Part shown: positions 1 to 50,747 of the stretch, in pieces
Layout: each line of letters opens with the position of its first letter
Numbering within the stretch: position 1 is the first letter of the stretch
NCBI GenBank assembly: GCA_000004985.1
Contig: GG738874.1
From: Naegleria gruberi
Lineage: Eukaryota
Strand: one strand, 5' to 3'
DNA length: 64,000 nt
The notes under the pieces: generated by a model
Told to the model about the DNA's origin: nothing
What the model saw: only the letters and a program-made list of their open reading frames with translations
The model's database searches: none
Made by a program: the position numbers and the translations under genes

Positions 1-2
1 AG

Positions 3-5198: not shown

Positions 5199-6362
5199 TT
5201 AAAATTGACAATTTATCATTAAATCTGTTAGTTTCTGAGCTATCATTGATTGATAGCATCTTTTCAATGTTGTCTTCTCGAATAAACAATTAGAAATATA
5301 GTGGTTATTTTTCTCGTTACTATTCACTACATATTTAACCACTTGTGAAATGTCAAAATCAGATATCGACTTGATAATGTGATATTCTGACACATTTCCA
5401 TTACCTGTTCGTAAATAGTTAGATATAATTGTATTGACAACATCCCTCTCGTGATAATCGTTTACAATTTGTTCAAGTTCTGGCATTAATTGAGCTTCAA
5501 AAGGTCTTTCAAATTTGATATAATTCCTCAACTTTTTCATCATTAAATCTGGTTTGGTAAAGAGAAGAATTATTCTCGTATTCGAATGATTTCCAATCAA
5601 TTCCTTGTAGAGTTTCAAACTTTCGTCCATTCTATTAACCTTCTCATCTCCATAACATGTTTGATTAAATTCTGAAAGAGAAACTACATAAATCAAAACT
5701 GAAACTTGATTTTCCAAACAATATCTCCACTTTCGTCTTTCATGAATTTTTCCACCTGCTGTCACAAATGTCAATCTATTCTTATTAAAAATAACACTAT
5801 AATCAATTATTCCAGAAGATCCTCCCTTAATATAAATATCTGGAATAAACCTCTCTCGATTCTTAATTTTTGACACAAAAATGTCAACATTCTCAAATAA
5901 ATTCAATGTATCCTGATTAGTTCTATAAATCTTTCTAAATCTATCATCATTCCACAATGCAACAAGTGCATGATCATCAAAATTTCCATTCGGTACCTTT
6001 TCATTAATAATAAACTCAACTGTCCTATCACTCGATGACGATGACGATGAGTACAAAATTTGTTGAATGATAATTCGTGAAATTGTATTCGTATCGACGT
6101 GATAGAAAGAGTCGGAAGTTTTATCGATGGAAGTAAAATGTTCCTTCTTTCTATTTTCATATCGAATCATTTCACAGATGGTTGTCTTTCCACTTGATGT
6201 GTTTCCAAGGAGGACGAATCTCTTTTCTTCCACGTCGTCATTAGCAAGATTATTCGAATGGTTATTCGAAGGAGAAGACGAAATAAACGTGTTTTGAATT
6301 GCGTTACTGTTAACGACGTTGGCGTGTTGCTGTTGTTGAAGTGTTGAGAGCTTCCCACCCAT
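5199..6362 (-). CDS. Heterotrimeric G-protein alpha subunit, divergent.
   Basis: N-terminal MGGKLS is the MG..S myristoylation-type start typical of G-alpha. The P-loop LLGNTSSGKTTICEMI matches the G-alpha GxxxSGKST consensus. RRKWRYCLENQVSVLIYVVSLSEF matches the switch II/G3 region ([24 protein letters not shown]). RILLFTKPDLMMKKL matches the NKxD region (ILFLNKKDLF). Real ATG (CAT on plus) at 6360-6362. Single exon of 387 aa. Confidence 0.75.
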   Translation of the reverse strand: MGGKLSTLQQQQHANVVNSNAIQNTFISSSPSNNHSNNLANDDVEEKRFVLLGNTSSGKTTICEMIRYENRKKEHFTSIDKTSDSFYHVDTNTISRIIIQQILYSSSSSSSDRTVEFIINEKVPNGNFDDHALVALWNDDRFRKIYRTNQDTLNLFENVDIFVSKIKNRERFIPDIYIKGGSSGIIDYSVIFNKNRLTFVTAGGKIHERRKWRYCLENQVSVLIYVVSLSEFNQTCYGDEKVNRMDESLKLYKELIGNHSNTRIILLFTKPDLMMKKLRNYIKFERPFEAQLMPELEQIVNDYHERDVVNTIISNYLRTGNGNVSEYHIIKSISDFDISQVVKYVVNSNEKNNHYISNCLFEKTTLKRCYQSMIAQKLTDLMINCQF

Positions 6363-11655: not shown

Positions 11656-14600
11656 TTATTGGGTATTGGCAAAGAGGTTGGAAACACTTCTATTGTTTGA
11701 GTAGAGGAGTGGATTGTTTTTCAAGTGTCTGTGATGTTTGTCATTGAGCAAATAGGTCTTGACAATTCCCTTTCCTTTCACATCAACTTCTCTCTCTTCA
11801 AAATCATATCCCAAATCGAAAACTCTTTCATAAGTTGATCTGGAGATTTGAATTCGTCCATTCTTTGAAGTGGATTCCATTCGAGAAGCAATATTGATGG
11901 TATCACCCCATAAATCGTAGGCAAACTTTTTCATTCCAATCACTCCAGCAACAACTGATCCTGTATTAATTCCAACTCGAATATTGATTTGTTGAGGTGG
12001 TGGAGAGGATGATTTCACCTTTAATTCATTATCTGTTTCCTTAACAACCTCCTCTTGTTCATTATTATCAACAGATTTGAGTCGATTTGAATTGAAATCA
12101 TTTATCACTCCAAATGTTTCAATTGCAAATTTTAAAACTCTTTCAGGATGATCACTTGTTGCAGCTCCAGGTAATCCACCCACTGCAAAATAGGCATCTC
12201 CAATTGTTTTGATCTTTTCCAAATCATATTTTTCAGTCAACATGTCAAATCCATTCACAATTGAGTTCAACATCATTACTAAATCAGTGGCTTGCATATT
12301 ACTACTTATGGCTGTAAATCCAACCATATCTGAAAAGAAACAAGTGATATCATCCAATTTTTCAGCAATGAATGTATGTCCACTTTTCAATCTTGAAGCA
12401 ACACTTGTTGGTAAGATATTCTTCAAGAGATTATCCGATTTTTGTTTCTCTTCACTCAATAAGGCATTTTGTTTCTTTTCAGAAGTTAAATCTTTCATTG
12501 TGACAATCAGAATATTTCTCATTGAACCTCTTTCACCTTGAATTTTGACAGTGAAGAGTGTTATTTTGCAAGGGAATTTGGTTTGATTTCTTCTGATACA
12601 ATCTAATTCAACAATTTCACATTTTCCATTTCCTTCTTCACTCTCCTTGCTGGATTGTTTCAATTGAACATCTTCATCATCTTGATCTTCATCCTTCTTA
12701 TCAGAATCTTTTCCACTCTTTTTGAAAATATACTTGATACACTTGTTGAGTTCATCTTGGTGTGTTGATTCAACCAATTGTGAAATTGAAGTTCCCAAAA
12801 CATCAATTGGTTTCATTCCAAACATTTTCAATGCAGAATAATTCAAAAATTCAATTTCATGATTCTCATTACAAATAATACTTCCTTCAACACTTGAATT
12901 GAAAACATTCTTCAAATCAGAAATGGATGAAGCGGAAGATGATGATGATTTGTCCTTCTTTTTCATTCTTGTACTCAATGAATTGGTATTGTTATAGAGG
13001 ATAAAGTTTCTCAATGTTTCATTCCTCTCTAAAACTTCAACTGGAATATATTGTGACATTAATCGAAGTGAATGTAATTGACCACAATAATTGGAGTAGA
13101 TGATATACATCAGAAAGAAGAAAACCATACACCCAACAATTTCCACACCTGCAAAGCTTATTACTACATCATAAGAGGGAGCTGTAGAGGAGGAAATGAA
13201 TGCCTTGATGAAAATTGTGAACTTGTTACTCAATGCTAGTGCCATTCTCATAGCAAGGTTATGCCGTATCCCTAAATCAGCTATTGGAAGAAGAATACCT
13301 TTTGGAGTTGCTGCCTTTTGAAGAGAATTTTGCTTTCTGGAGTCAGTCAATAATTGAGGAACCAGGGTCATGTAATCATTCAAAAGTGTTTCCAAACCGA
13401 TGCAGTACATCATATTTGTTTCTATTGTAAGAGTCATATTATTTTCTTGCAAATAGTCAGAGCAATTAGATGAAACGCCATGATTAATAAGTGAGTCAAC
13501 ACCTGGATACATTCCTAAAATTGGTCTGGTACCAACAGAGGCATCCCCATAAATTAATCTTGACCACATACTACTAAGAGTTGGTAATCTATTTGTTGCT
13601 CTGTCAAAGAGTACATTGAAATTTGTAACAGTATTGAATAATCTTGGATCACCATATGTAACATTTCTTTTGAAATTAACTGCCAATGGAGAAATATTGT
13701 TTGAAATTTCACTTGCAACAAAGTAGGTCATTACTTCACCTGTGTTAAATGCGATTCTCTGTACAGATGTTGCAGCTTGAATACTTAATCTTACATTGTT
13801 CATCACTCTACCAGCAGTTTGGGCATTGAAGTCGCTTTCATAATAGAACATGGCAATACTTGCACATGTAAATAAGGTAATCAGCGAAATCAAAATAATT
13901 GTTGAAATGTTTGATTTCATTTTGGCAAGTGAGAAAGTATTGTCAGCATTATTGGCAGTATCAGTTGTTTTGTTGTTGAGAGAGTGAAATATTTTTCCAA
14001 TCACATCTTTGCTCAAATGTTTTTCATATATTTTCACAATTTTTGTCATATGACTCATTTCAAATATCATATAACTCAAATAAGCAATACTGATCAAAAA
14101 GAATGCAACTAGAACTGCACCTGAATAATACACCAAATTTTGAGTTGTTAGATCTACTGCATCTGTTGATCTATCAAGATAACGGGCGCAAAAAGTATCA
14201 AAAGCCAGTGAAGCAGTTTCTCTATTCGCAAACAGGAACATGAAATTGTAATTCTTCAATGGGTGAAAGTACAAATCAGTTGCTGCAATATTTAGCAATA
14301 GAGTTTGATAGGACGGATCATAGTTATGGCTTGAAATATTTGTCAACAAGTTAATTGGAAAGGTGTCAATCATATTTTGGGTATACTTGATCATGTGGTT
14401 TGTAAATTCAAGAATGGATATATTCTTTTGACTTGCACTTCCTAAATCATACAAATTCAAATCTTTTGAATTTTCATTTGGAAAGTTACAAGTGTAAATG
14501 TTAGCAGAATAATCTGAATATACATCTACATCGAAAGAATTACTTTGACTCAATTTGATAAGATTCTTGTAAATATCAATATTGTCTTGCAATCGTTTGT

Positions 14601-17136
14601 AGGAATTCTTGATATATTCAGTTTTGGAAAGAGTCTCATATCCTTGATAGGTATTTGGCCATGGATATTCAAAAAACATGAAGGTATTAATGAAGTTCTG
14701 TGTTGCCCTAATGTTTCTAAGTACAGAGTAAGGAGAAATACTTGGTTGACAAACTTGTTGGAGGTAAGGAACTCCTGATTTTACCATATTTGAATAATAG
14801 GCACTGAGAGCCAGTGATGCAACAAACAGAGCAACAACAACCAGGGCGTAAATGCAAGTGATAGATAGTGTGAGAGTATTTGATCTTTGTGATGAAATGG
14901 CATTCTTGAAAATTTGCTCCTTTTTAATCTTTGGATTTTCAAATGCACTTGCCATATCATCTTCATTTGGTTCCTCTTGAGCCAAGTACATTTCATAAGT
15001 ATTTTTTACCTCTGACACAAGTGGCATAATTCTATTTCCTCTCTTATTGACTGTATTATTTGCAAATGAAGCTTTCCTTCTCTTTTTAATTTCCTCTTCT
15101 TCAATGGAGGACGCTTCATTGTAATAGTATTGTGCTAATTCTGAATTGAATTCAAAATTTTCCAAAAAGTTTCCATATAATCTGAGAAGTGTCTTGTTAT
15201 TCTTATTGTTGAAAATTAAATTTTGCAACGTATTTCTACATTGAGTGGTCAAAGCATAAATGGAACGATTAATCTTTTCAACAGATGAATAATTAATTCT
15301 TTCAGAGGCCATTTCTTTCCAAAAGTTTCTGTGAAGAACCAACAAGTTATTTTGATTCTTTTCTAGAATATCTAATTGAGAGGTTAATTCAAATGAATTG
15401 CTTGTTGATTTGGATTTTAAATTGAATGATTCAATTTGTTTCATTTTCTCTCTGATTTTAAATTGTTGGAAAATGTTTGGATGTTGTGATGAGGCTCTTT
15501 TCAATAAACTCATTGAAAAGACACAATTATTTGAATCTAACCATTGTGTTTGAATCAAGAGTGCAGAATAGATTAATAGATCAACATTATTGAATGATTT
15601 TTGATGAGCTGCACCTCTTATGAAAGACATGGCCAATTCACAATCTTTCAATATTTGATTATTTTCAGTAGTGCTATTATTGTTAGTATTATTGGATGAT
15701 TTGTTTAGTGTAGAATTGGATAAACATGATTTGATGAATAATTTCAATAATGATAACTTGTTGAAATCTTCAAACATGTAATATAAATTCATTGCATTCT
15801 TTTCAATTAAAATAAGTGATGAAATGGTTCCATAATTTTCATGACCTTCAATTCCATTCAATATCATATTTCTTGCTCTCTTCAATTGTAAACGTTGATA
15901 CAGTTCCATTGTCAATGTGCCAACAGTAAAGAAAATGATAATAAGAGCAAGTGTCATTAATGAAAATGCAATTCCCATCATTTCAAAATTGGCCCTCTCA
16001 GAATCTGAAGATGAAGATGTTATCGATGATGAATTGACCAATGAAGAAACGAGTGAACCAATACTCGCACCAACTCTTGCTGACATTACACCAAAATACA
16101 ATGAATTTTCAAATCTTCTCAAACATGGCATGCTATAGAATACCAAAACACAACAAATTAGTGAAACTAGTAAATGAAAAATTGCTGATATGAAAATATA
16201 ATTGGTTGGTAATAATTGAGACAATACCAATTGTAAAATACTCAGACAACCAATCAAACTAAAAATGAATGGATTTTCAATCAACATTGGAATTTGAGAT
16301 TCTGGATTTGAATTGCATGTTATAAATTCTGATAATGGAAAGACAAAAGTGACCAAAACTAAAATTGAAATAATTGAAAGAATTAACATGATCAAATTGG
16401 TGGTGTCATTAATACATGCTTGATTCGGATATCTCATCAATGAAGCAATCATATCAGAAGATTCATCAGCATCATTCATCATCATTGTTGAACTACAATT
16501 GAGAAAACCAAGCAACACATAAACAAACAACAAGGAGAATGGTTTTACAATCAAAGCACAATAAAAAGTAAACCATTTCAATTTCTTATAATACTTGTTC
16601 TGTTTGTTGGCTAATCGAATTGAAATTACATAAAAAACAGCCATAATCAATATAATTGCAATGAAAACAGAACCAATTCCAACAACACCCAAATAAGGAA
16701 TCATTCTTGCAATCAAAGTCGTTGGAAAATTGAAAGCATCAATTAAAATATAACTTCCAACATGTCCCCATTTAAAATCTGAAAGAGTTGTCATGAAAAT
16801 TAAACACCACATCCAATAAACATTCACAAATAAAAAGATTGAATAATTTTTCCATCCCTTCTTTGCCTCACAATCTTGTAAAGTGATAATACTATTGGTG
16901 AGTAATATCTTTGCCTGATAAGTGATTGAATTAGTTTCGGTTGTGGTTGTATGAGTGTTGGCACTGTGCAAACTTTCAGAGCCAACATGAGATGGTGTTG
17001 GTTGTAAGAGATTAGATGGATGTTGTTGCTGAGCATTGAAGGAGAAGGCAGCGCTGTAGGAATCGAATAAATTATTGGAAGAAATGTTTCGTGTTGTTTC
17101 GTTTGGATTGGAATGATTTGAGTTGGATTCCTCCAT
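11656..17136 (-). CDS. Receptor-type class III nucleotidyl cyclase, predicted adenylyl cyclase (1826 aa), tandem copy 1.
   Basis: The C-terminal cyclase homology domain contains FSDMVGFTAI, KIKTIGDAYFAVGG, GSVVAGVIGMKKFAYDLWGDTINIASRMES. The purine-specifying residues are Lys (KIKTIG) and Asp (YDLWG), as in adenylyl cyclases; guanylyl cyclases have Glu and Cys. Upstream lie an N-terminal ~6-TM block, a predicted helical region, and two more TM segments flanking a ~350-aa extracellular segment. A PAS-like segment precedes the catalytic domain. No intron is needed. Confidence 0.85.
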   Translation of the reverse strand: MEESNSNHSNPNETTRNISSNNLFDSYSAAFSFNAQQQHPSNLLQPTPSHVGSESLHSANTHTTTTETNSITYQAKILLTNSIITLQDCEAKKGWKNYSIFLFVNVYWMWCLIFMTTLSDFKWGHVGSYILIDAFNFPTTLIARMIPYLGVVGIGSVFIAIILIMAVFYVISIRLANKQNKYYKKLKWFTFYCALIVKPFSLLFVYVLLGFLNCSSTMMMNDADESSDMIASLMRYPNQACINDTTNLIMLILSIISILVLVTFVFPLSEFITCNSNPESQIPMLIENPFIFSLIGCLSILQLVLSQLLPTNYIFISAIFHLLVSLICCVLVFYSMPCLRRFENSLYFGVMSARVGASIGSLVSSLVNSSSITSSSSDSERANFEMMGIAFSLMTLALIIIFFTVGTLTMELYQRLQLKRARNMILNGIEGHENYGTISSLILIEKNAMNLYYMFEDFNKLSLLKLFIKSCLSNSTLNKSSNNTNNNSTTENNQILKDCELAMSFIRGAAHQKSFNNVDLLIYSALLIQTQWLDSNNCVFSMSLLKRASSQHPNIFQQFKIREKMKQIESFNLKSKSTSNSFELTSQLDILEKNQNNLLVLHRNFWKEMASERINYSSVEKINRSIYALTTQCRNTLQNLIFNNKNNKTLLRLYGNFLENFEFNSELAQYYYNEASSIEEEEIKKRRKASFANNTVNKRGNRIMPLVSEVKNTYEMYLAQEEPNEDDMASAFENPKIKKEQIFKNAISSQRSNTLTLSITCIYALVVVALFVASLALSAYYSNMVKSGVPYLQQVCQPSISPYSVLRNIRATQNFINTFMFFEYPWPNTYQGYETLSKTEYIKNSYKRLQDNIDIYKNLIKLSQSNSFDVDVYSDYSANIYTCNFPNENSKDLNLYDLGSASQKNISILEFTNHMIKYTQNMIDTFPINLLTNISSHNYDPSYQTLLLNIAATDLYFHPLKNYNFMFLFANRETASLAFDTFCARYLDRSTDAVDLTTQNLVYYSGAVLVAFFLISIAYLSYMIFEMSHMTKIVKIYEKHLSKDVIGKIFHSLNNKTTDTANNADNTFSLAKMKSNISTIILISLITLFTCASIAMFYYESDFNAQTAGRVMNNVRLSIQAATSVQRIAFNTGEVMTYFVASEISNNISPLAVNFKRNVTYGDPRLFNTVTNFNVLFDRATNRLPTLSSMWSRLIYGDASVGTRPILGMYPGVDSLINHGVSSNCSDYLQENNMTLTIETNMMYCIGLETLLNDYMTLVPQLLTDSRKQNSLQKAATPKGILLPIADLGIRHNLAMRMALALSNKFTIFIKAFISSSTAPSYDVVISFAGVEIVGCMVFFFLMYIIYSNYCGQLHSLRLMSQYIPVEVLERNETLRNFILYNNTNSLSTRMKKKDKSSSSSASSISDLKNVFNSSVEGSIICNENHEIEFLNYSALKMFGMKPIDVLGTSISQLVESTHQDELNKCIKYIFKKSGKDSDKKDEDQDDEDVQLKQSSKESEEGNGKCEIVELDCIRRNQTKFPCKITLFTVKIQGERGSMRNILIVTMKDLTSEKKQNALLSEEKQKSDNLLKNILPTSVASRLKSGHTFIAEKLDDITCFFSDMVGFTAISSNMQATDLVMMLNSIVNGFDMLTEKYDLEKIKTIGDAYFAVGGLPGAATSDHPERVLKFAIETFGVINDFNSNRLKSVDNNEQEEVVKETDNELKVKSSSPPPQQINIRVGINTGSVVAGVIGMKKFAYDLWGDTINIASRMESTSKNGRIQISRSTYERVFDLGYDFEEREVDVKGKGIVKTYLLNDKHHRHLKNNPLLYSNNRSVSNLFANTQ

Positions 17137-23761: not shown

Positions 23762-23824
23762 TATCTTTGCCTGANNNNNNNNNNNNNNNNNNNNNNNNNN
23801 NNNNNNNNNNNNNNNNNNNNNNNN

Positions 23825-24895: not shown

Positions 24896-24945
24896 NNNNN
24901 NNNNNNNNNNNNNNNNNNNNNNNNNNNNNNNNNNNNNNNNNNNNN

Positions 24946-25145
24946 GCCTGATAAGTGATTGAATTAGTNTCGGTTGTGGTTGTATGAGTGTTGGCACTGT
25001 GCAAACTTTCAGAACCAACATGAGATGGTGTTGGTTGAAGCATTGAGGAAGAGAAAGCTACGTTGGTATTTTGTTCGAGCAGGTTATTGGAAGAGGAGGA
25101 TGAACCATTACTTGCATTAGGTACTGCAAGTAAGTCTTCGTTCAT
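24946..25145 (-). CDS. Displaced 5' coding segment (N-terminal ~65 aa) of adenylyl cyclase copy 2.
   Basis: Its translation ...MLQPTPSHVGSESLHSANTHTTTT.TNSITYQ matches the copy-1 N-terminus. The nucleotides match 16900-17040. The segment is bounded by an N-run at 24896-24945. Confidence 0.5.
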
Positions 25146-25529: not shown

Positions 25530-28500
25530 TTAAGGTTCTTCAGTGAGTGTTGCGTAATTTCCATTTCCATCATTTTGATTTTGTGGAGCGGTTTGTCCTT
25601 GTTTCTTCTTGTAAATGTAATATCCAACACCAATGACAATTGCAATAATTATCATCAAAATAAATCCTACAAGAACAACGATATATGATTTGTCACCCTT
25701 TTCTGTAATAATTGTTCCAGCACTACTTGATGTTGGCTTATTGCTTGATGTGCTTGGTTTGTTTGGGGATGGAGTTGGTTTGTTTGGAGATGGAGTTGGT
25801 TGAGGAGTCTTACCACTGCTAGATGTTGGTGGAGTTATTGGTTGAGCAATAAGGGCAAAAGATGAAGGCCAATGAGTAGTTGAGCATACAACTGAATAAG
25901 TGCTTGCTGTTGCTCCTTGTTGTGAACTCAAAATGGTGGTTGTAACTCTGTCAGTCTTCCAAGAATCAGTGGCTTTATCGTAATATGCACAAGCAATTCT
26001 GGACAAGGCGACACTATGTCTTGCTAATGCAGATGTTGGAACGACTATATTGTGCATGTTTAAAAGGATTGGATCAGGAAGGTTATTTAATTCTACTCTT
26101 TGGTTGTTTCCTTGTTGAGTAATGATGAATGTAACAGCAGGGCTCAATACTTTAGAGTTAACACTTCTAATATCAGAAACTGATGAGGCCATATTGAGTG
26201 GAATCTCTTCATCTCTGAGAATAGTTTCCAAATAATCAGAAATTGATGCAGGAAGAGTAATGAAAATATCCTTGAATTTGGTAAATGTAATATTAAAGCT
26301 CTCCATATCTTCCATATCTTGTACGTCTATAATGTTTGTTTCTGTCAAATTCTTCAAAGCAGTATTGTTTACAACAGAACAGAAGAGGGAAGTATCTCCT
26401 GGTGGACAAATAATATTTGTAGCACATTGAGGACCATTATATCCATAAGCACATTGACATGAATCAGGAGATTCACAAACACCATTTCCAGAACATACAT
26501 TAGGATCAGAATAATGAATACCATAACAATAGTAATTCTCACAATTATTACCAGAGAATCCACTTGTGCAATTACACTTGTTTGGAGATGAACAAATACC
26601 ATTACCTGAACAAACTTGAGGATCATTCTTATCCAAGCCATTACAAGAGAAGCTTTCACAATTTTCTCCTTCATATCCAAGAACACAAGTACAATTATTT
26701 CCAGATGAGCAAACACCATGACCTGAGCACACATTGGTATCGTTTGAAGGAATACCATGGCATTTGAATGCTTCACAAGTGTGTCCATAGTATGGTTCAG
26801 TACATTCACAGAGGTCAGGTTTTGAACAAACACCCTTTGATGAACATACTTGTGTATCATTGTGCATAATTCCAAAGCAGTCAAAATGTTCACAAACATT
26901 TCCGTAATATCCAGCTTGACATTCACACTTGTCTACAGATTTGCAAATACCATTACCAGAGCATACTTGCTTGTTAGAATTGAGTACACCAAAGCATTGA
27001 TAATTTTGACATTCCTTTCCTGAATAGCCAGCTTGACAAGTGCAATTGTTTCCAGATGAGCAAACACCATGCCCTGAGCAAACAGTTGAAGTATTAGTTG
27101 AGGAAATACCATAACATGTGAATGATTCACAATTAACTCCTTCATAAGCCTCCTTACATTCACAACGACCTGGGGCTGTGCAGTATCCATTTGCTGAACA
27201 CACATTTGGATCGGCGTGTTCTACTCCATTACAGTAATAAAATTCACAACTAGAACCGTTAAAGTTTTGTTCACATACACACTTATCAATTGCTTCACAA
27301 ACACCATGTGAGGAACATACTTTCTCATCGTTGTGGGCCAATCCAAAGCATCCATAATTCTCGCATTCGTTTCCATAGTATCCAGGTTTGCAGGTACAAT
27401 TATTTCCAGATGAACAAACACCATGACCTGAGCAAACAGTGGAGTCATTTGATTGTTTTCCGAAACAGGTAAAATATTGGCAAGTTTCACCAGAGTGACC
27501 ATCGCGGCATTCGCACTTGTTTGGCAAACTACAGAGACCAGCTTGAGAACAAACTGATGGATTTGAGTGCTCTACACCAAAACAGTCATAATGCTCGCAA
27601 TTATTTCCATAATATCCATTGTTACAAGTACAATTATTGGCAGAAATACAAACACCTTGAGATGAACAAACGTTTGGATCTTCCTTTGGAATTCCATTGC
27701 AACCAAATAATTCACATTGCTCGCCATAATAACCTGCGAAACATGAACAATTATTGTAAGACTCACAAACACCATTGCCCGAACAGACAGTTTCATTTGA
27801 AGGGAGCAAACCAAAGCAAATTCTCGGTAATTTTTCACATTCAGCAGCATCATTAAGTCTGTAACCCTTTGGACACATTGCTGTCAACTTTCTAACTCTA
27901 GAATTACCACTGTCAGCAATATAAACAGTACTTCCGTCTGGTGAGATATCAGCAAACAATGGTCTGTTCAAAAGTGCGAGCCTTGAATCTAAAACAACTT
28001 CTCCATTGAATCCATTAATACCAGTTTTACCAGCAATAGTAGAGATGGTAGCGTTTTCTTCCTTAAGATTAAATCTTATAATTGTGCTATCTCCATTACA
28101 AACAACAATAAAATCACCCTTTGGAGAAACTGAAACAGATCTTGGATAGTAAATAGTATCATCAGATTCAGAACCTTCCAAAACGGTGGAAATAATTCCG
28201 TCATTTGAAACTTTTCTAATTCTATGACTGGCAAAGTCAGAAATGAATACTTCTCCTTCTGGGGATAAGGCAACTGAAGTAGGATTAGCCAATGAAGCAA
28301 GTGTAGCCTTAATATTATCAGCATTATAACCATAATTGTAGTTACCAGCAATAGTTGAAATAACACCCTCTGCGGATACTTTTCTAATTCTGTTAGCAAC
28401 ATTATCAGCAATGTAAATTTCACTTGATGCAGAAACAACAAATGAAGATACACTTGACAAAGCAGCTTGTGTAGCCAATAATCCATCACCAATACCACCA

Positions 28501-31076
28501 GCAATAGTTTCAATTACATTGTTGGAGAGTTTTCTAACTCTATTATTGCCACTATCAGCAATAAAGATATTATCAGAACTATCCATAGACAATGAAGAAG
28601 GATAATTGAGATAAGTTGTTGTGGCCAAACCATCACCATTAAATTCATAGTTTGAGTCAGATCCAGCAATTAATTGAAGAGAACCATTATCATACTTGCT
28701 TATCATATTACCATGGGCAATATAGATTTCATCACTGCTGGAAATAACAATACTAGCAGGACTTGAAACCTCAACAAGTGTGGTAATATTTCCATCGAGG
28801 CCAATTTTTCTGATTCTATCATTTCTGGTATCGGCAATAAACATTTCACCAATTGAATTGATAGCAATAGAATTTGGGGCATTGAGAGAGGCACAACAAG
28901 CCTTTGAACCATCTCCAGCAAAAGTTGGTGAACCATTTCCAGATACAGAAGTAATAATTCCATTAGAAATCTTTCTAATTCTATTATTGTTAGTATCTGC
29001 AAAATAAATATCACCATTAGAGGATATGTGCAAACCATTTGGATTGTTCAACAAGGCATCGGTAGCGCTAATGTTGTTTCCATTATAACCTGTAACGGTT
29101 TGATTACCAGCAATAATAGTGACAACACCATCTGGAGACAATTTACTGATTGTGCTAAGTCCTGTAAAGTAAATATCATCTCCAAATTCATTGACACTGG
29201 TTGGGAACTCTACCACATTAGTAATAGTAGAAATGATACCGGTTGTTTGATTGATCATTCTAATTCTATTATTTCCACTGTCACAAATGTAAATGTTGCC
29301 AGAAGTCTTTGAGGCAAAAACACCAGATGGATAGAAGAGAATTGATGAGGTAGCAACTTGTCCATCTCCTGCAAAATTATTGAGGATACCACCAGCAACA
29401 CGCTTAATAATACCATTTGAAAGAATCTTGTAAATGACATTTTCTACATTAAAGTAGGTCTCTCCTGTACCGGCAATGTAGAAGGAAGCAGATGGATTGG
29501 AAATTAATGTTGCATTGGCCAATTTACCATCCAAATCAGTTAATGTGTTTACAGGTTCTGACGAACCAATGACTGTAGAAATAATGCCTTGTTGATTAAT
29601 TCTTCTAATTCTATTGTTACTTCCATCGGCAATGGTAATAATATCGGCTCCATCCTTTTGGGCGACATGAACATGATTAGGTGAGAGTGCAGACTGAATT
29701 GCTGGGCCATTATCTCCCAAATATGTTGGTTGTCCATTACCAAAAATTGTTGAAATGATTCCTTCCTCAGTAATCTTTCTAATTCTATTGTTCATGCAGT
29801 CGGCAATAATAATCTCCTCAGCAGAAATAGCAATGAATGAAGGATTGTTCAAAGTTGCAGCAGTAGCTAAGCCACCATCTCCAATTGGTCCGATATTAGA
29901 TCCAGTACCGGCTACAATGGAAATTGTATTGGTTGCTGGATTTAACATTTTGAGAATGTGTTGGGATTGTTCCAAAAAGTAGACTTCACCCTCCTCACCA
30001 ACAGCAATACTGGTTGGAGCAATGGTTGCATTGAGAGCATCAATAGGAATTGGTTGGATTGGAGAACCTGGAATTGGTTGAGCACCTGAACCTGCAACTG
30101 TTGTAATAATTCCATTGACAATCTTTCTAATGTAAAACTTGTCGGCAATGTAAATTTCTGGGATGGTATTAATTGGAGCATCTTCCATTCTAAAAAGAGC
30201 AAGTCCTGTTGGTTGAGAAAGGAGAGCATCAGTAGCATTGATACCATTGCCAAAGTATCCCTCTTGTCCACATATACCAGCAATGGTAGTGATGGTCTTG
30301 TTGGAAATTGATAACTTTCTAATTCTAAAGTTTTGAGTATCTACAATATAGATAAACTCCTCTACACCTTCCATTGAATAGACAATTTGACTTGGAGCAG
30401 ACAATTGTGCATCACTCAAAGGAGAAGGAACATTATCAGAACAAATAGAGTCCAAATTGTTAGTGGCAAATGTTGAGAGTGTACCATTAATATCAATCTT
30501 TTTGATAGACCAAGTTGGATTGTTTTCAACAAAGTAAATATCACCAGTCATTAACGAAACTGTGACTGTGTTTGGATTGGTCAACTTGACAGTATTAGCT
30601 GGAAGGCCATCAGTGTTTTCATTAGATGAACCTGATGCTGCAACACCAGCAATGGTTGATACAATAGTAGGAATGTTATCGAAAACTTCTTGTTCAGGAT
30701 CAACAATAACACCAGTCCAATTATAAGTTAATTTTCTGATTAAATTATTTGCTCTGTCAATAATGATCAAATCTTGAGGTCTTTCATCTTCTACCAAATT
30801 TACAAGAGGTGTAGGAATTGTTCTAGGATAGAATGCAATAGCGTGTGGATGACCGATTGGTGTATCAAGTCCATTATAGCCATCACCAAGATTACCTCCA
30901 GCGATGGTTTCCAATTTGTATGTAGGAGCCAAGTTGTTATCTGAAGATGTTGCATTGATGGTAGTAGTACTAAACAACAACATCATCAAGAGAAGGCTAC
31001 TAATAAATAAAGATAATAAATATTCGTGATGAGAAAAAGATTTTACTCTCCCTGCAGAGTCGAAAAACCTCTTCAT
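25530..31076 (-). CDS. Giant type-I surface protein of 1848 aa. It has a signal peptide, ~20 NHL (six-bladed beta-propeller) repeats, ~16 tenascin-type EGF repeats, a Ser/Pro/Thr-rich stalk, one TM helix, and a 25-aa cytosolic tail.
   Basis: The N-terminal hydrophobic leader is LLSLFISSLLLMMLLFS. Many NHL-type units recur, for example IYIADSGNNRIRKI, FIADTRNDRIRKI, YFADTNNNRIRKI. The EGF units follow C.G....VCSG.G.C.....C.C..GY.G..CE..C. The stalk is TPQPTPSPNKPTPSPNKPSTSSNKPTSSS. The TM helix is YIVVLVGFILMIIIAIVIGVGYYIY. Confidence 0.85.
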   Translation of the reverse strand: MKRFFDSAGRVKSFSHHEYLLSLFISSLLLMMLLFSTTTINATSSDNNLAPTYKLETIAGGNLGDGYNGLDTPIGHPHAIAFYPRTIPTPLVNLVEDERPQDLIIIDRANNLIRKLTYNWTGVIVDPEQEVFDNIPTIVSTIAGVAASGSSNENTDGLPANTVKLTNPNTVTVSLMTGDIYFVENNPTWSIKKIDINGTLSTFATNNLDSICSDNVPSPLSDAQLSAPSQIVYSMEGVEEFIYIVDTQNFRIRKLSISNKTITTIAGICGQEGYFGNGINATDALLSQPTGLALFRMEDAPINTIPEIYIADKFYIRKIVNGIITTVAGSGAQPIPGSPIQPIPIDALNATIAPTSIAVGEEGEVYFLEQSQHILKMLNPATNTISIVAGTGSNIGPIGDGGLATAATLNNPSFIAISAEEIIIADCMNNRIRKITEEGIISTIFGNGQPTYLGDNGPAIQSALSPNHVHVAQKDGADIITIADGSNNRIRRINQQGIISTVIGSSEPVNTLTDLDGKLANATLISNPSASFYIAGTGETYFNVENVIYKILSNGIIKRVAGGILNNFAGDGQVATSSILFYPSGVFASKTSGNIYICDSGNNRIRMINQTTGIISTITNVVEFPTSVNEFGDDIYFTGLSTISKLSPDGVVTIIAGNQTVTGYNGNNISATDALLNNPNGLHISSNGDIYFADTNNNRIRKISNGIITSVSGNGSPTFAGDGSKACCASLNAPNSIAINSIGEMFIADTRNDRIRKIGLDGNITTLVEVSSPASIVISSSDEIYIAHGNMISKYDNGSLQLIAGSDSNYEFNGDGLATTTYLNYPSSLSMDSSDNIFIADSGNNRVRKLSNNVIETIAGGIGDGLLATQAALSSVSSFVVSASSEIYIADNVANRIRKVSAEGVISTIAGNYNYGYNADNIKATLASLANPTSVALSPEGEVFISDFASHRIRKVSNDGIISTVLEGSESDDTIYYPRSVSVSPKGDFIVVCNGDSTIIRFNLKEENATISTIAGKTGINGFNGEVVLDSRLALLNRPLFADISPDGSTVYIADSGNSRVRKLTAMCPKGYRLNDAAECEKLPRICFGLLPSNETVCSGNGVCESYNNCSCFAGYYGEQCELFGCNGIPKEDPNVCSSQGVCISANNCTCNNGYYGNNCEHYDCFGVEHSNPSVCSQAGLCSLPNKCECRDGHSGETCQYFTCFGKQSNDSTVCSGHGVCSSGNNCTCKPGYYGNECENYGCFGLAHNDEKVCSSHGVCEAIDKCVCEQNFNGSSCEFYYCNGVEHADPNVCSANGYCTAPGRCECKEAYEGVNCESFTCYGISSTNTSTVCSGHGVCSSGNNCTCQAGYSGKECQNYQCFGVLNSNKQVCSGNGICKSVDKCECQAGYYGNVCEHFDCFGIMHNDTQVCSSKGVCSKPDLCECTEPYYGHTCEAFKCHGIPSNDTNVCSGHGVCSSGNNCTCVLGYEGENCESFSCNGLDKNDPQVCSGNGICSSPNKCNCTSGFSGNNCENYYCYGIHYSDPNVCSGNGVCESPDSCQCAYGYNGPQCATNIICPPGDTSLFCSVVNNTALKNLTETNIIDVQDMEDMESFNITFTKFKDIFITLPASISDYLETILRDEEIPLNMASSVSDIRSVNSKVLSPAVTFIITQQGNNQRVELNNLPDPILLNMHNIVVPTSALARHSVALSRIACAYYDKATDSWKTDRVTTTILSSQQGATASTYSVVCSTTHWPSSFALIAQPITPPTSSSGKTPQPTPSPNKPTPSPNKPSTSSNKPTSSSAGTIITEKGDKSYIVVLVGFILMIIIAIVIGVGYYIYKKKQGQTAPQNQNDGNGNYATLTEEP

Positions 31077-31425
31077 TTTTGTGCCTTTTTTTCTTCTTGT
31101 CGATTCACTCTACTTGTGCATAAGAGAAGAATGTTTGATGGATGGGAAGTAATTTTGGAAGGGCAAGGGCAGAAAGTATGTTGTTTGATGCTAAGAAGTG
31201 ATCTCCGCATTTTGATTTTGTTGGAGTAAATTTAATTGGCTGATTATTTTTTGTTAGTATTCTTTTTGTCTTCCATTTACGAGAAGATCTTCACGAAAGA
31301 TTATTTATCTGATATTAAAGATAGCATTGTGATGAACAGATGAAAGCAACACATTTTTATTTTTTTTAAATTATGAATTGTTTATTCTTGTAACGGTAAC
31401 TTTTACTGCCCGCCACGTTTAAAAA
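31077..31425. promoter_or_regulatory. Divergent (bidirectional) promoter region between the NHL/EGF gene (minus) and the AP-endonuclease gene (plus).
   Basis: Head-to-head real ATGs lie 349 nt apart. The GC-rich motif CTGCCCGCCACG sits 15 nt upstream of the APE ATG in an otherwise AT-rich spacer. Confidence 0.4.
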
Positions 31426-32538
31426 ATGAAAAGAAAGCAAGAAACAAAAAACACCAAGAAATTATCTTCATCATCCAATGAAGGACCAACAAAAAAGTTG
31501 AAGCAATCCAACCTTCTCTCCCTATTCAAGGCACCTTCATCACCACCAGCCTCATCGCAATCCTCTACTGATACTGACTCATTGACAATAGTAGAGGAGA
31601 GTAAAACCTTCTTGGGCACGAATAATAGCTATGAATTGAACAAGCAATTTAAATTCATCAGCTGGAATGTGAATGGAATATCTGCCGTCTTTAGGAAGGA
31701 ACCCAATTATTTGAAAATGTTGGTAGAGAAGGAAGAACCTACTTGTCTTTGTTTGCAAGAGACTAAGCTTTCTGAAGATGTAAAATTATCGGAAATGGCA
31801 CAATATAAATTCAAGAATTATATTGGACACTTTAACACTTCTAGGGCAAGAAAAGGATACTCTGGTACTGCTTGTTTTGTTCTAAAGCATGGTCCAAAAG
31901 TATTGAATGTCAAGTTTGGTATTGGTAAGGATAAGCATGATTTGGAGGGAAGAACTATTACTGTTGAATATGAAGACTTTTATTTGGTCAAGTAAGTTAA
32001 TATTTACACATGTGTAATCTCATGCCTTATTATTGAATGAATTGATTCAAAATGATAATCATTTTGTTGACATAATAATAGTACTTATTGTCCCAATTCT
32101 GGACAAAATCTCGATCGATTGGAATATAGAACAAAGGAATGGGATGTGGATCTACTCAAATACTTTGAAAAATTGGAAAAGAAAAAGCCAATCATTTGGG
32201 GTGGTGATCTTAATGTTGCCATTTCAGAGATGGATATTCATGATCCTCTTACATTATCCAAAAGTCCTGGTTTTACATTGGAAGAACGGCAATCTTCTCC
32301 TCTCGTAACAAAGGCCTCACCTCCTTTTATTGATTCTTTCAGATATAAAAATCCATATAAGAAACAATACACATACTATGGTTACATTAATGACATGAGA
32401 TTACAAAAGAAAGGATGGAGAATTGATTATTTTGTTTGTAGTAATTCTCTAAAAGACAAGATTGTAAATTCTTACATTCTTGAGGAATACTTTGGCAGTG
32501 ACCATCTACCAATTGGTTTAATCATTAATAAGGAGTAG
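31426..32538 (+). CDS. AP endonuclease, exonuclease III / APE1 family. Two exons, about 31426..31991 and 32082..32538, with a 90-nt phase-2 intron (GTAAGT...AATAATAG).
   Basis: Exon 1 carries ISWNVNGI, LCLQETK, GYSGTA and EGR. The spliced junction gives [26 protein letters not shown], which matches human APE1 [25 protein letters not shown]. Exon 2 carries IIWGGDLNVA, GFT.EER, GWRIDYF and GSDHLPI. Confidence 0.85.
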
Positions 32539-35868: not shown

Positions 35869-37875
35869 TTAGATATAATCCAAATCTGAATATTGTGAAC
35901 TAGTCAAAATGTTGACATCCGTGAAATGATTATTCTCCAATTTGTAAAGTAATCTCCTCCCCATCAAATTTTCAAACTTTTTATCCAAATTCCAATTCAC
36001 AAATGATTCTCTCACATTAAATAACATTGAATTCATTACCTGATTGACATCAAATTCATCCAAAGTATTAATGGCATGGAAAGTGATTGAAGATTCGTAT
36101 TCTGCTTCACTTTCTCCATAGTAATGTGAATGATAGCTGATTGAGTATCGATTTTGGATTTGTTTGAATCGTTCGAGGATGTAATTGAAAACTTGTTTTG
36201 GGTTTTTACGATTTCCATTGAAATCTGAAAAGTATTGAGAAAGTGCATTGGATGCTTCACCTTTGGAAACCTTTCGAATGAAGGAATCGACCTTTGTGAA
36301 GAGAACAATCTTTCGAATAGATGATTCGCCAAGTTCCTTCTTGGAAAACACTTGTTCGAAATAGGTTAAACTATCTAGCAATCTATTACCTGGTTTGGTT
36401 TCTGATTTGGAAGGTGAAATTAAATCTTCAAAACTTAACATGTCAATATCCGAAAGTGAAACTGTGAATATAATACATTTCAAATTTTGTTTTTCCAAAT
36501 ATGGAAGATAGAGAGCTCGTTTTTCTTTCCATCCAAAAGTTTCCAATAACAATAGCTTTCTAGTCACCAATTCTCTATTTTCCAAAGTTGGTTTTGTAAT
36601 ATCCTTCACTGGCATACTTTCCAAAGATAGAATTTTAGCCCTCACAATATCTTGTTTGGTCAACTCGGTAATTTTCTTCAATTTTTCAACTCTGCCATCA
36701 TTTAAAAAGTATTCAATATTCTCTCCCAATAGTGGAATTGGAGTTTTCCTCGAATTTCTCTCTCTATACGATTTTTGGACGAAAGGATGTTTCCACAATT
36801 GATCCATCACTTTGAAAAATTCCTTCTGCTTCCATAATCGTCTTAGAATTTGTTGAGATGATGAAACTGAGTTGTTATCTGATGAATTAACTGTCATTGA
36901 AGAACTTCCATTATTCGAATTTTGGCTTGTTTGAGGATTTAATGAGAAAATATTCGAAGGAGATTGGTTTCCATTCGGTGATGTCTTTCCATTCGTAGAA
37001 TTCACATTCGTATTCATTGAACTATTCGATAAATAATTAATTCTTGGAGAAACTGACTCTGGATGAATCATATTTTGAAATTGTTGAATTAAATCTGAAA
37101 ATTGTTGAGTAAATTCTGGTGAAGAATTTTGAATTTCCTCAAAATTGACTTCATGTTGTGAATGTACAAGGATTTTTAAACAGTAAATGCAATAGAGAAG
37201 TATTGAATCTCTATAGAATTTCAATTCTTCAGTTTTGTAATTGTAATCTCTCAAAATTTCCATCAAAGTTGCTAAAATAGGAAACTGTCAGAATTCAAAA
37301 TTATATTGACACTTACTTTTACCGCTATCTACACCTCCAAGAATGAGAACTAATTTACAATCTTGTAATCTTTTCAAATGTTCTTGATGTGAAATGCCAC
37401 TAATCAATTTTGAATAAATATTGAACTGGGTAGCTCTTGGAGTTTTCATTGCAGAACTTGAACTTCCAATATTTAATAATGAAGTTGATAAAGATTTACT
37501 CTTCCTGTCAGAATTGATGACTGACAGTTGTTCGACATTTGTTAGATTGAGTGTTGGCACTTTCGACACTTCGGAAGATTTTGTATTTTTCAAAGCATCA
37601 AAAACAGGATCTTCTGTTTTGACATCCGAAGTATTATTTGATGTTATCATGGATGTCAAAATAAATCTGCCAACTGACTGGCTTCTTTGATGTTTGGCAG
37701 GTTTTAATCCTTCCCTTCCGTTCTGTTGTTGTAAATTTGCAAGATTTGAATTCGAATTATTTAAAGTAAACGAAGACGAATCTACTTCTATTCGAATCAG
37801 ACTTTCAATTCCATTTGATAGAGAATCTCCAGCATTTTGTTGGTCAAGATCTGGTGATGAAAGTTTTATTCCCAT
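35869..37875 (-). CDS. Heterotrimeric G-protein alpha subunit. Two exons, about 37317..37875 and 35869..37271, with a 45-nt phase-1 intron at 37272..37316.
   Basis: The start is MGIKLSS. On the minus strand the intron reads GTAAGTGTCAATATAATTTTGAATTCTGACAGTTTCCTATTTTAG. Splicing restores the G-alpha P-loop LILGGVDSGKTTLMMEIL. Without splicing, the frame stops 11 codons after SGKSK. Downstream, YLPYLEKQNLKCIIFTVSLSD matches the switch II/G3 region and IVLFTKVDSF matches the NKxD region. Confidence 0.85.
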
Positions 37876-45175: not shown

Positions 45176-46798
45176 TTAAAAATCGTATTTCTTCTTTTTG
45201 AGTTTATCAACCTTAATCTTATCAATCTTCATTTCACGTTGGAAAGCAAGAGATTGTTTGAATCTGTGGTGAGTATCCATCATTACCAAACAAGTTTCCT
45301 TTTCCAAAATATTGAACATATCTTCTGGTAGTGTTTCAATTTGCTTATCGTTGTAACTGTCAAGCTTATCCTTGACAGCATCAGTAAGAACATGAGAAAT
45401 ATTGACAGCCATATCACCAGTAACTTCCAAAAATTCAGTAAATATCTCAAAAGCAACTTCATACTTTTTGGCTTCAACTTCAGCATATTCTTTTTCAAGT
45501 GGGGAAAGCTTCTTTTTTCCAGAGTGGGCTGAATCACCTGAAACACCTGAAATTTCACTAGAAACATCACTTTGTACATTGCTTTCTCCGAATAATCTCA
45601 TTTGCAAGTCAATGGAACGTTCGCACAATGATCTATAATAATGAATCTTTTCCAAGAGTAAAAAGTTTTCAGTTGACTTTTCCTTTTCACAATGTATCTT
45701 AAATAATGTTCTCAATCCATCATCCTCCATAGTGTCCATCAACATGACAGCATTGGCACGACGAATCTTCTCCAAATATAATGAGTCACGGTTAATGGCA
45801 TAAGTAAAGACAAATACAATGATTGGCAAAATGACGAATAGTGAAACGGCAATGACAATCAATTGAACCAAAGTAATGGCCAGAACATTCTTGTCTTTGG
45901 TACTTTCTTTCTCTTGTACAAAGGTGACCAATTTATCGAGACCTTCTTGGAAAGTTGTCTTGATTGTATTGTATGATGTTGAACTCAGTCTTGTTTTGGC
46001 ATCTTCTGGTTGTGTTCTGATAATTAGTAATATCTGAGAATTTGCTCCATCCCAATTATTTGAAGCCTCAACAGTTGTAGAGTTAAACATGGTCTGAATG
46101 GAAGCATCATCCACGTTCTTTAAAATTGTTTGTAAGGTTTTTTTCAGTGTTTGAGTAGAGTTTTTATACTCTTCCTGAACTAGTAATCTCTGATCTTCTG
46201 ATGAGTAACCAGTATAAGTATACTTTAAAACTAGAGCATTGGAGCTTTCAAAGATGGAAGTAACTTTACCAACAGCAATTAAAATATCGGTTGACTTGGT
46301 TGTGGTAGCAACGAATGCAGCAACAGCTACGCCAGCCAATACTAACAAACCAATAACTGTCACCATCATACCTAGTAAACAAGCCAATTTCATTGAAGTT
46401 AGCTCAACAACACCACAACATGTTCGCAAAGTAATTTTACTCTGACTGAAAGAACTTCCAGACCTTCCACTTTCGCTATGATTCACAAAACCAACTTGAG
46501 ATTGAGCAGCTGTTGTTTGTTTTGCTGTTGTAGTTGGTGATGCAATAGTGACCTTCTTTGAGTTATTTGTTGATGGAAGTGCTGTTATATTCATTGTGTT
46601 ATTTGGTTTGTTGTTGTCGAGTGGAGTTGTTGATTGTGGAAATGATGGTGAAGAGGACGTTGTTGGATTATTTGCTATTGTTGTTGTTGTATTGTTATTA
46701 TTGTTGGAGAGATAGGAAGTGGCATTATTGGCTTCGTTTGAGGCAGGAGCTAGTGAAGGTGAGCCTGTTGTGGAGGCTGTTGATGGTGGTGTATTCAT
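45176..46798 (-). CDS. Two-TM RGS-domain protein of 540 aa with a single exon. Paralog of 9691..11277.
   Basis: The RGS core LEKIRRANAVMLMDTMEDDGLRTLFKIHCEKEKSTENFLLLEKIHYYRSLCE is near-identical to the paralog. TM1 is KLACLLGMMVTVIGLLVLAGVAVAAFV and TM2 is LAITLVQLIVIAVSLFVILPIIVFVF. The N-terminus is Asn/Thr/Ser-rich. Confidence 0.8.
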   Translation of the reverse strand: MNTPPSTASTTGSPSLAPASNEANNATSYLSNNNNNTTTTIANNPTTSSSPSFPQSTTPLDNNKPNNTMNITALPSTNNSKKVTIASPTTTAKQTTAAQSQVGFVNHSESGRSGSSFSQSKITLRTCCGVVELTSMKLACLLGMMVTVIGLLVLAGVAVAAFVATTTKSTDILIAVGKVTSIFESSNALVLKYTYTGYSSEDQRLLVQEEYKNSTQTLKKTLQTILKNVDDASIQTMFNSTTVEASNNWDGANSQILLIIRTQPEDAKTRLSSTSYNTIKTTFQEGLDKLVTFVQEKESTKDKNVLAITLVQLIVIAVSLFVILPIIVFVFTYAINRDSLYLEKIRRANAVMLMDTMEDDGLRTLFKIHCEKEKSTENFLLLEKIHYYRSLCERSIDLQMRLFGESNVQSDVSSEISGVSGDSAHSGKKKLSPLEKEYAEVEAKKYEVAFEIFTEFLEVTGDMAVNISHVLTDAVKDKLDSYNDKQIETLPEDMFNILEKETCLVMMDTHHRFKQSLAFQREMKIDKIKVDKLKKKKYDF

Positions 46799-49971: not shown

Positions 49972-50747
49972 TTGAAAAAGAAGCCTGGAAATTCCAGGAA
50001 AGAATTTGGAACAAAAATCTTTCCTAGAAAATCCAGAGAAAAATCTTTCCGGCTACACTCACCACAAGTTTGCTCATCACATGGTTCTTGTGTTGCTCCC
50101 AATAATTGCTCTTGCCTTAATGGATATTATGGAAGTGAGTGTGAACATTATAATTGTTATGGTATTTATTATAATTCATCACAAGTGTGCTCATCTCGTG
50201 GTGTTTGTGTTTCTCCTGAGAAATGTAAATGTTCAGATGGATATTATGGTAATAATTGTGAACAGTTCAATTGTTCTGGCGTTCATTTCAATTCATCACA
50301 AGTTTGTTCTTCACATGGCACATGTATTCTTCCAGAAAAGTGTATTTGTTCTAGCGCTGGCTGGAACTAATTGTGAGATCTATAATTGTTCTGGAATTGT
50401 AAACACCTCACCAGAAGTTTGCTCTTCACATGGTATTTGTGCATCTCCTTTTTAATTGTAAATGTTCCAATGGATATTATGGAACCATTTGTGACTTGTT
50501 TGATTGTTTCGGTGTTGAACATTCGAATAGCAGTATTGTCTGTTCAGGAAATGGTATATGCCAAACTCCAGATTTTTGTAAATGCAACAATGATCGCCAT
50601 GGAATCCAATGTGAGGCTGTAGGAAAATGTGTCACTGTTAATAATTCAACATTGTGTGCTAAATCCTCAACTCACTCCTTCGATATTCATGTAATTTTCA
50701 TGGTTGTCTTGTTGGTAGCATTGTTTTTAACTCATAACAGTTTGTAA
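49972..50747 (+). pseudogene. Truncated and decayed gene fragment. It encodes ~6 tenascin-type EGF repeats, a TM helix and a short tail (NHL/EGF surface-protein family). It lacks a start and a signal peptide. Two +1 frame breaks occur at homopolymer runs near 50365 and 50455.
   Basis: The EGF units (CSCLNGYYGSECEHYNC, CKCSDGYYGNNCEQFNC, CKCSNGYYGTICDLFDC) are spread over three frames. The frame is restored by removing 1 nt at each break. The fragment begins mid-repeat and ends VIFMVVLLVALFLTHNSL. Confidence 0.6.

Follow-up and report, generated by a model that had tools for sequence, protein, structure and literature searches.

GAIN and GPS domains are best known from animal adhesion G-protein-coupled receptors (GPCRs) and polycystins. 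They also occur outside the GPCRs: in sea-urchin suREJ1, which is single-pass, and in the polycystin-1-like proteins, EGF or lectin modules are followed by a membrane-near GPS/GAIN module; these proteins possess REJ and lectin domains but lack NHL propellers. NHL blades and EGF repeats are combined in the teneurins, which are defined as type II proteins with eight EGF repeats, TTR, FN-plug, one NHL propeller, a YD shell, ABD and Tox-GHH (PMC13018210). In the genus Naegleria, seven-transmembrane (7TM) RGS proteins of N. fowleri with GPS motifs and EGF repeats act as GTPase-activating proteins on G-alpha subunits (PMC9283941). This was the only paper mentioning GPS and EGF modules in our literature searches on Naegleria NHL and EGF proteins, GAIN domains and teneurins, which otherwise returned nothing specific. 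Here we analysed a 64,000-nucleotide stretch of the Naegleria gruberi genome (GenBank assembly GCA_000004985.1, contig GG738874.1; hereafter the window) that contains a giant open reading frame (ORF) with NHL and EGF repeats. Its product is probably a lineage-specific type I surface glycoprotein of a Naegleria NHL-EGF-GAIN-B family, with an adhesion or uptake receptor as the likeliest output.

The ORF lies exactly where a first-pass annotation of the window had placed it (Table 1). Its 5547-nt frame is unbroken, holds no run of Ns and has an even GC content (0.34–0.37) along its length; judging from the sequence, chance cannot explain an open frame of 1848 codons in DNA of ~35% GC. The closest assembly gap (24896–24945) is 585 bp 3′ of the stop codon. 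In a full-length homology search the ORF was colinear with two relatives, P0011 of N. gruberi and P0061 of N. lovaniensis, at 77–81% coverage. Since these full-length relatives are colinear, mis-assembly of the ORF is excluded; together with the N-free frame and even composition, this also disposes of the concatenation of separate genes that the first-pass annotation had raised as a danger to its own claim. NHL, EGF, GAIN-B, stalk and transmembrane (TM) segments cover the whole length of the protein.

Pfam assigned the propeller region to TEN_NHL (6e-57, 194 bits) and NHL (3e-43, 144 bits), in agreement with the NHL repeats annotated earlier, of which about 20 had been claimed. A repeat hidden Markov model (HMM), which we built from nine blades carrying the N-x-R-I-R-K motif, mapped 18 blades at a regular period across the region. 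The same number came from an AlphaFold2 model of aa 45–1070, based on a 33-sequence alignment, in which the 71 β-strands (mean predicted local distance difference test, pLDDT, 76.5) give 18 four-stranded blades with the last blade one strand short. Most simply, 18 blades would make three tandem six-bladed propellers. Foldseek searches with this model placed LRP4, LRP2, LRP6 and Sevenless on top and also returned a bacterial teneurin-like protein and teneurins. In sequence searches of the PDB, the region matched the bacterial teneurin-like protein (E 3e-58), PknD-type propellers (1e-46 to 1e-15; the PknD sensor itself at 7e-15, with PknD-derived Pizza designs between) and metazoan teneurins (1e-13 to 1e-11). 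The best full-length database matches to the NHL half were bacterial multi-NHL proteins with 30–37% identity.

An extra pair of cysteines (C1068, C1080) lies ahead of the EGF array, which Pfam recognised as EGF_Teneurin (6e-49), EGF_2 (6e-41) and EGF_TEN (1e-40). The earlier call of tenascin-type EGF repeats therefore stands; its count of ~16 does not, as the cysteine map gives exactly 12 six-cysteine repeats of 39–40 aa, with the spacing C-x10-C-x5-C-x5-C-x-C-x8-C and a 4-residue linker. Pairwise protein identity among the repeats is 30–74%, and the greater likeness of repeats 4, 7 and 10 hints at a possible old three-repeat unit. Because a tandem-repeat scan found no DNA-level tandem repeat in the array, no recent repeat expansion is evident in the gene, and the earlier description of the family as 'expanding, recombining' is not borne out for this member.

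The first-pass annotation had a mucin-like stalk following directly on the EGF repeats. An S/T/P-rich stretch is indeed present, limited in extent to a short juxtamembrane segment (Table 1), and the 190 residues that precede it form a folded GAIN-B domain that had been missed. Searching 1.84 billion representative sequences with aa 1560–1750 (phmmer) recovered nine relatives, all from Naegleria (E 2e-8 to 4e-4), whose matches span aa 1560–1745; word-indexed searches with the C-terminal region and with the family alignment found only P0127, an allelic fragment discussed below. A profile of the ten aligned domains matched only adhesion-GPCR GAIN domains in the PDB, with ADGRL3 (E 0.011) followed by ADGRG1, ADGRG6 and ADGRG3, and the alignments stop at HLT-x-FAV. 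AlphaFold2 modelled aa 1552–1760 as a β-sandwich of ~12 strands with three short helices (pLDDT 78.8, predicted template modelling score, pTM, 0.73), the last strand being SFALIA, and the two best Foldseek matches to this model were the GPR56 and GPR126 ectodomains (probability 1.00 and 0.99). Taken together, the profile matches, the model and the Foldseek result identify the domain as GAIN subdomain B. Both here and in the paralogs it has one of the two canonical GPS disulfides. Through this domain the protein is linked both to receptors of the adhesion-GPCR type and to one particular Naegleria family.

This family comprises, as a lower bound, at least seven N. gruberi paralogs (D2V6D1, D2VCD3, D2VCH1, D2VTG3, D2V5G0, D2VZH3 and D2VSZ2; D2VCD3 is listed as 'NHL repeat domain-containing protein') and two N. 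lovaniensis relatives, A0AA88KJU5 (UniProt 'GAIN-B domain-containing protein') and A0AA88KVK2. All nine share with the query the signal, NHL blades, EGF repeats, a ~190-aa GAIN-B domain, an S/T-rich linker, one TM helix and a short tail, and their juxtamembrane domain is homologous to that of the query at 23–33% identity. It is on this homologous GAIN-B domain and the colinear architecture that we assign the protein to the Naegleria NHL-EGF-GAIN-B single-pass family, of which it is the largest member seen: 1848 aa with 18 blades and 12 EGF repeats, against 524–1387 aa and 1–3 EGF repeats in the nine relatives. Unlike the paralog tails, its tail is not purely basic and carries a YxxΦ motif. The paralogs, together with subtelomeric EGF and NHL pieces in the window, bear out the suggestion of a multigene surface-protein family with related pieces near the chromosome end. 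Recombination with those subtelomeric pieces is another matter: DNA similarity is 65–76% over 100–300 bp only, with no sign of recent exchange.

The end of the GAIN-B domain is GPS-like in sequence, with C1696-AYYDKATDS-W1706 and, further on, C1731-STTHWPSSFALIA, that is C1731-STT-H1735-W-P-S-SFALIA. Pfam GPS matches fall on the aligned site in the paralogs and in P0094, and when the C-terminal region was compared with P0011 and P0094 by BLASTP, the GPS motifs were paired correctly, at non-significant scores (E 0.28–0.45). The sequence C-x-T-x-H-L-T-S-F-A-V-I-D closes the domain in nearly all relatives. In the query, the family consensus HL↓TSFAVID (arrow, cleavage position) has become HWPS-SFALIA, a change of Leu to Trp plus one extra residue. 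Since the independent allelic model P0127 also has HWPS, this is not a sequencing error, and this member is, from its motif, probably not self-cleaving and stays a single chain. Among the relatives only D2VTG3 (P0132) is similarly degenerate, with SLERSIVVID for HLTSFAVID and a one-residue insertion, which indicates that the cleavage motif was lost more than once in the family.

The protein has two hydrophobic segments, at aa ~19–37 and at the C-terminal TM helix. The N-terminus consists of an 18-residue charged N-region, the hydrophobic core LLSLFISSLLLMMLLFS and the polar stretch TTTINATSS; equivalent N-terminal hydrophobic segments are found in the paralogs, and signal-peptide cleavage is presumed. 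By hydropathy, this signal-like segment and the one C-terminal helix confirm the type I layout proposed before, with a cytoplasmic tail one residue longer than the 25 originally given. All N-x-S/T sequons (29/29) lie upstream of the TM helix. The stalk, which is presumed to be O-glycosylated, holds a PTPSPNK repeat (a 21-bp tandem of 2.3 copies at 25754–25801, found with Tandem Repeats Finder, TRF). The tail contains the YxxΦ-type motif YATL (aa 1841–1844, nt 25545–25556), kept in P0127, which suggests a sorting signal for adaptor-dependent internalisation.

Related ectodomains are found on other membrane modules. P0011 (N. gruberi, 2807 aa) has a signal, ~18 NHL blades, EGF repeats, a long middle region, a GPS with the site SSHL↓SVFSV, one TM helix and a kinase, while P0094 (2300 aa) has NHL and EGF repeats, a weak REJ match, a GPS (Pfam 1.7e-8), seven hydrophobic segments and RGS. 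Thus, the NHL-EGF-GPS ectodomain combination appears to be reused on different outputs.

The exact 1848-aa product was absent from a 15-billion-sequence protein collection in an exact-sequence look-up, and no near-identical protein was present among the matches to the full length or to the C-terminal 297 aa. On the strength of this look-up and the two homology searches, the intact 5.5-kb gene appears to have no model in the N. gruberi reference protein set; four neighbouring window proteins match N. gruberi NEG-M entries exactly (D2VIU2, D2VIU6, D2VIU9 and D2VIV3), which rules out the dictyostelid source that the AT-richness might have suggested. Public proteins contain a sole trace of the gene: P0127 (N. 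gruberi, 349 aa, named 'predicted protein', from a 43-kb scaffold), which fuses the N-terminal 178 aa to the C-terminal 171 aa (98% identical) and skips ~1500 residues. Presumably this model was spliced over a gap in an allelic scaffold. A 1071-bp contig (23825–24895), set in the window between the 50-N gaps 23775–23824 and 24896–24945, matches 30463–31529 in the same orientation at 99.44% identity; that stretch spans the first 205 codons of the ORF, the shared promoter and the start of an endonuclease gene; this contig looks like an allelic haplotig mis-scaffolded into the gap, not a true duplication. Val-for-Ile and SSS-for-SS variants are common to P0127 and this contig. Both the N- and the C-terminal part are 98–99% conserved in the second allele, where they stay in frame, and at a DNA identity of 99.44% the coding indel between the alleles is one whole codon (SS versus SSS).

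How such a protein might work can be sketched from its parts. The three propellers would form a distal, ligand-binding head; their nearest solved relatives are non-enzymatic NHL propellers, and the ligand might lie on the surface of bacterial prey, on the substrate or on other amoebae. The 12 disulfide-braced EGF repeats would serve as a long stiff spacer, the GAIN-B domain as a non-cleaving membrane-proximal module, and the glycosylated stalk would raise the ectodomain above the membrane. As the 26-aa tail has no enzymatic domain and does have the YATL motif, adhesion with adaptor-mediated internalisation, as in an uptake or phagocytic receptor, would be the likeliest output, in preference to direct signalling. 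The overall design may be considered analogous to that of LRP-type endocytic receptors: LRP4, LRP6, LRP2/megalin and Sevenless also set tandem six-bladed propellers and EGF repeats on a type I chain with a short tail that bears a tyrosine-based sorting motif. This is an analogy of design, as the LRPs have YWTD rather than NHL propellers, and the query has no LDL-A repeats or NPxY; no Ldl_recept_a or Ldl_recept_b match was found by Pfam, so the likeness to LDL receptors is at the level of fold and architecture only.

Several points weigh against this reading. At 18 aa, the N-region of the signal is longer than usual. The propeller number is deduced from the blades, and the inter-domain geometry of the NHL model is unreliable (pTM 0.39). 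Pfam GPS was not found in the query, the C-terminal 295 aa giving only low-complexity and TM noise at E<=10; the GAIN call is based on family homology and on a structure predicted from a 10-sequence alignment, and non-cleavage is read only from the motif itself. The YxxΦ motif, a short one that the paralog tails lack, is possibly fortuitous. Finally, a public gene model is missing, and annotators may have had no support for the gene; the nearby assembly gap and the haplotig are simpler reasons for this absence.

The domain names given by Pfam (TEN_NHL, EGF_Teneurin and EGF_TEN as best matches) and the presence of teneurins and the bacterial teneurin-like protein (PDB 9ifo) among the PDB sequence and Foldseek matches raise the question of whether the protein is a teneurin homologue, or a pre-metazoan teneurin relative, with a rearranged domain order. 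The proteins do have features in common, as teneurins and the bacterial protein, like the query, set NHL blades in large adhesion ectodomains, and metazoan teneurins likewise have tenascin-type EGF repeats. However, the membrane topology is reversed; teneurins have 6 blades and ~eight EGF repeats, against 18 and 12 in a different order in the query, where the EGF array stands between the propellers and a membrane-proximal GAIN domain that teneurins do not have. No protein counts as a teneurin without the superfold (PMC13018210), which is formed by FN-plug and YD/RHS shell, and among Pfam families at E<=0.01 the query has no FN-plug, YD/RHS, ABD, Tox-GHH or Ten_N match. The NHL similarity to metazoan teneurins is also much weaker than that to the bacterial and PknD-type propellers (3e-58 to 7e-15), and the top full-length matches are bacterial multi-NHL proteins. 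Teneurin kinship, which had framed the first-pass annotation, is therefore extremely unlikely; by sequence comparison, the Pfam names reflect generic NHL and EGF similarity and not membership, so that the 'Teneurin' labels are misleading and are no evidence of teneurin ancestry. A second explanation takes the GAIN-B fold at face value and makes the protein a cleavage-competent, mechanosensitive receptor whose NHL-EGF fragment is shed or pulled away, exposing a tethered peptide in the manner of adhesion GPCRs, for signalling through a partner protein. A canonical HL↓T(S)-SFAVID site survives in the paralogs, 7TM-RGS and kinase modules bear related ectodomains, and a juxtamembrane GAIN domain with a GPS motif is what the query has in common with the adhesion GPCRs (latrophilin/ADGRL, GPR56/ADGRG1, BAI3, CELSR1 and CD97). 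Yet both alleles have Trp in place of the −1 Leu, and either a Pro at the position of the nucleophile or a turn lengthened by one residue; the H-L/M-↓-T/S/C triad of adhesion GPCRs is thus unconserved (H1735-W-P-S). The helical GAIN subdomain A and one of the two GPS disulfides of adhesion GPCRs are missing from the query. Many animal GAIN domains are themselves uncleaved. The single TM helix after GAIN-B leaves no 7TM core for a tethered agonist, and the query is without the G-protein-coupling or RGS module of adhesion GPCRs and the Naegleria 7TM-RGS proteins (PMC9283941). We consider a cleaved receptor of this kind improbable. Of the REJ module, the Pfam scan of the query found no match.

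The propellers could also be surface-displayed enzymes of the lactonase, lyase or SGL type instead of binding modules, as weak Pfam matches to SGL (3.5e-8) and Vgb_lyase (5e-5) and the name 'sugar lactone lactonase YvrE' of many bacterial relatives might imply. We give this little credence: Vgb_lyase is far under its curated cut-off (22.6 versus 50 bits), SGL is barely over its own (33.8 versus 26.3 bits) and far below the bit scores of NHL and TEN_NHL, the 'YvrE' names are automatic labels, and the nearest solved relatives (the PknD sensor, Pizza designs, the teneurin-like protein and TRIM71) are non-enzymatic. Nor is it at all likely that the locus is an assembly chimera or a decaying pseudogene with no single functional gene behind it. 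Such an origin would suit a locus that has scaffold gaps on either side, a second copy of 1.07 kb from its 5′ end close by, a frameshifted EGF fragment 19 kb off, no protein model in public sets and a degenerate GPS cleavage motif. Against it stand the whole, N-free frame of even composition, the domain order shared with full-length N. gruberi and N. lovaniensis relatives, the reading frame kept in the second allele with its single whole-codon indel, EGF cysteines that are all in register (72/72) and a GAIN-B domain modelled with high confidence.

A type I adhesion or uptake receptor thus remains our preferred reading of the gene, and what is new in it is a GAIN-B domain whose cleavage motif is dead, an ectodomain design that recurs on other receptors and the apparent absence from the reference protein set. 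A bolder proposal, which we put forward tentatively and hold to be rather unlikely, is that the gene belongs to an undescribed class of single-pass GAIN adhesion receptors in Naegleria (Discoba), in which one ectodomain is set on at least three outputs, a short sorting tail, a kinase and a 7TM-RGS module, this gene being the giant, cleavage-dead and uptake-specialised form. If true, GAIN would already have been a general membrane-proximal adaptor of adhesion-type receptors well beyond animals and their single-celled relatives, with no need of 7TM coupling. The heterolobosean family would in any case offer a tractable non-animal system for GAIN function without a 7TM partner and for the shuffling of ectodomains between outputs. 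In the genus, to which the pathogen N. fowleri belongs, proteins of this kind are candidates for receptors that make contact with prey or host.

Table 1. Coordinates of the NHL-EGF-GAIN-B gene, its parts and other features of the window.
Feature	Position (nt)	Strand	Protein position (aa)	Description or basis
Complete single-exon ORF	25530..31076	(-)		1848 aa + stop, ATG start; ORF listing
Presumed cleavable signal peptide	30948..31076	(-)	1-43	Hydropathy peak aa 18-40
18 NHL blades, ~57 aa each	27879..30920	(-)	53-1066	Pfam, self-built HMM, AlphaFold2, Foldseek, PDB sequence matches
12 tandem EGF repeats	26409..27818	(-)	1087-1556	Cysteine map, repeat table, Pfam
GAIN subdomain-B-like beta-sandwich	25845..26408	(-)	1557-1744	Helical subdomain A absent
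Degenerate GPS motif	25845..25991	(-)	1696-1744	Alignment with paralogs, P0011, P0094
S/T/P-rich stalk	25686..25844	(-)	1745-1797	Sequence, TRF
Single TM helix YIVVLVGFILMIIIAIVIGVGYYIY	25611..25685	(-)	1798-1822	Hydropathy maximum 3.46
26-aa cytoplasmic tail KKKQGQTAPQNQNDGNGNYATLTEEP	25533..25610	(-)	1823-1848	Sequence
Lys/Ser/Thr-rich low-complexity protein, KKSxxKK repeats	ORF 528-2996	(+)		No Pfam match
G-alpha subunit genes (two) and RGS-like membrane protein gene	5199-6362, 35869-37266, 45176-46798	(-)		G-alpha: Pfam 1e-43, 8e-37
PAS-adenylate/guanylate cyclase genes, two tandem paralogs	11656-17136, 18514-~25150	(-)		TmcB-TPR, PAS, cyclase 1e-52
Exo_endo_phos (AP-endonuclease-like) gene	31426-32538	(+)		Two ORFs, 31426-31995 and 32119-32538
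EGF-TM fragment	49972-50747	(+)		~six EGF repeats, then hydrophobic C-terminal segment; three frames
NHL-BTB gene D2VIV3	50951-53152	(+)		733 aa, six near-identical NHL blades + BTB/POZ, no signal peptide
(GGGTTT)n arrays	62700-63076, 63658-64000			63 and 58 copies, 97-98% matches, reaching window end

The endonuclease gene is divergent from the NHL-EGF gene, 350 bp off the start codon of the latter, and its split into two ORFs presumably reflects one intron. On the other side, two gaps together with the haplotig inserted there break up the second cyclase gene, of which the 5′ end (24946–25040) matches 16913–17008 of the first cyclase gene at 96.9%. The EGF-TM fragment and the NHL-BTB gene reported near the ORF were both found, ~19–20 kb away. 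The fragment lies directly 5′ of the NHL-BTB gene, has no upstream NHL region or signal, and is a decayed gene piece or the result of sequencing errors. The blades of D2VIV3, an intracellular NHL propeller joined to a likely cullin-3 adaptor, are encoded by a 168-bp tandem unit in 5.9 copies (86% DNA matches), and near-identical tandem blades point to a recent blade amplification in this neighbouring gene.

The (GGGTTT)n arrays are in accord with the earlier placement of the window end near a telomere and make TTTGGG a candidate N. gruberi telomere repeat; a 2013 survey described Naegleria telomeres as wholly undescribed at that time (PMC3622300). With its G-alpha genes, RGS-like protein and two cyclases, this chromosome end is rich in signalling genes; the RGS match of the membrane protein is weak (2e-4, under the curated cut-off). 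At the opposite end of the window, the coding strand of region 1–2996 (+) is strongly AT-skewed (AT skew 0.46).

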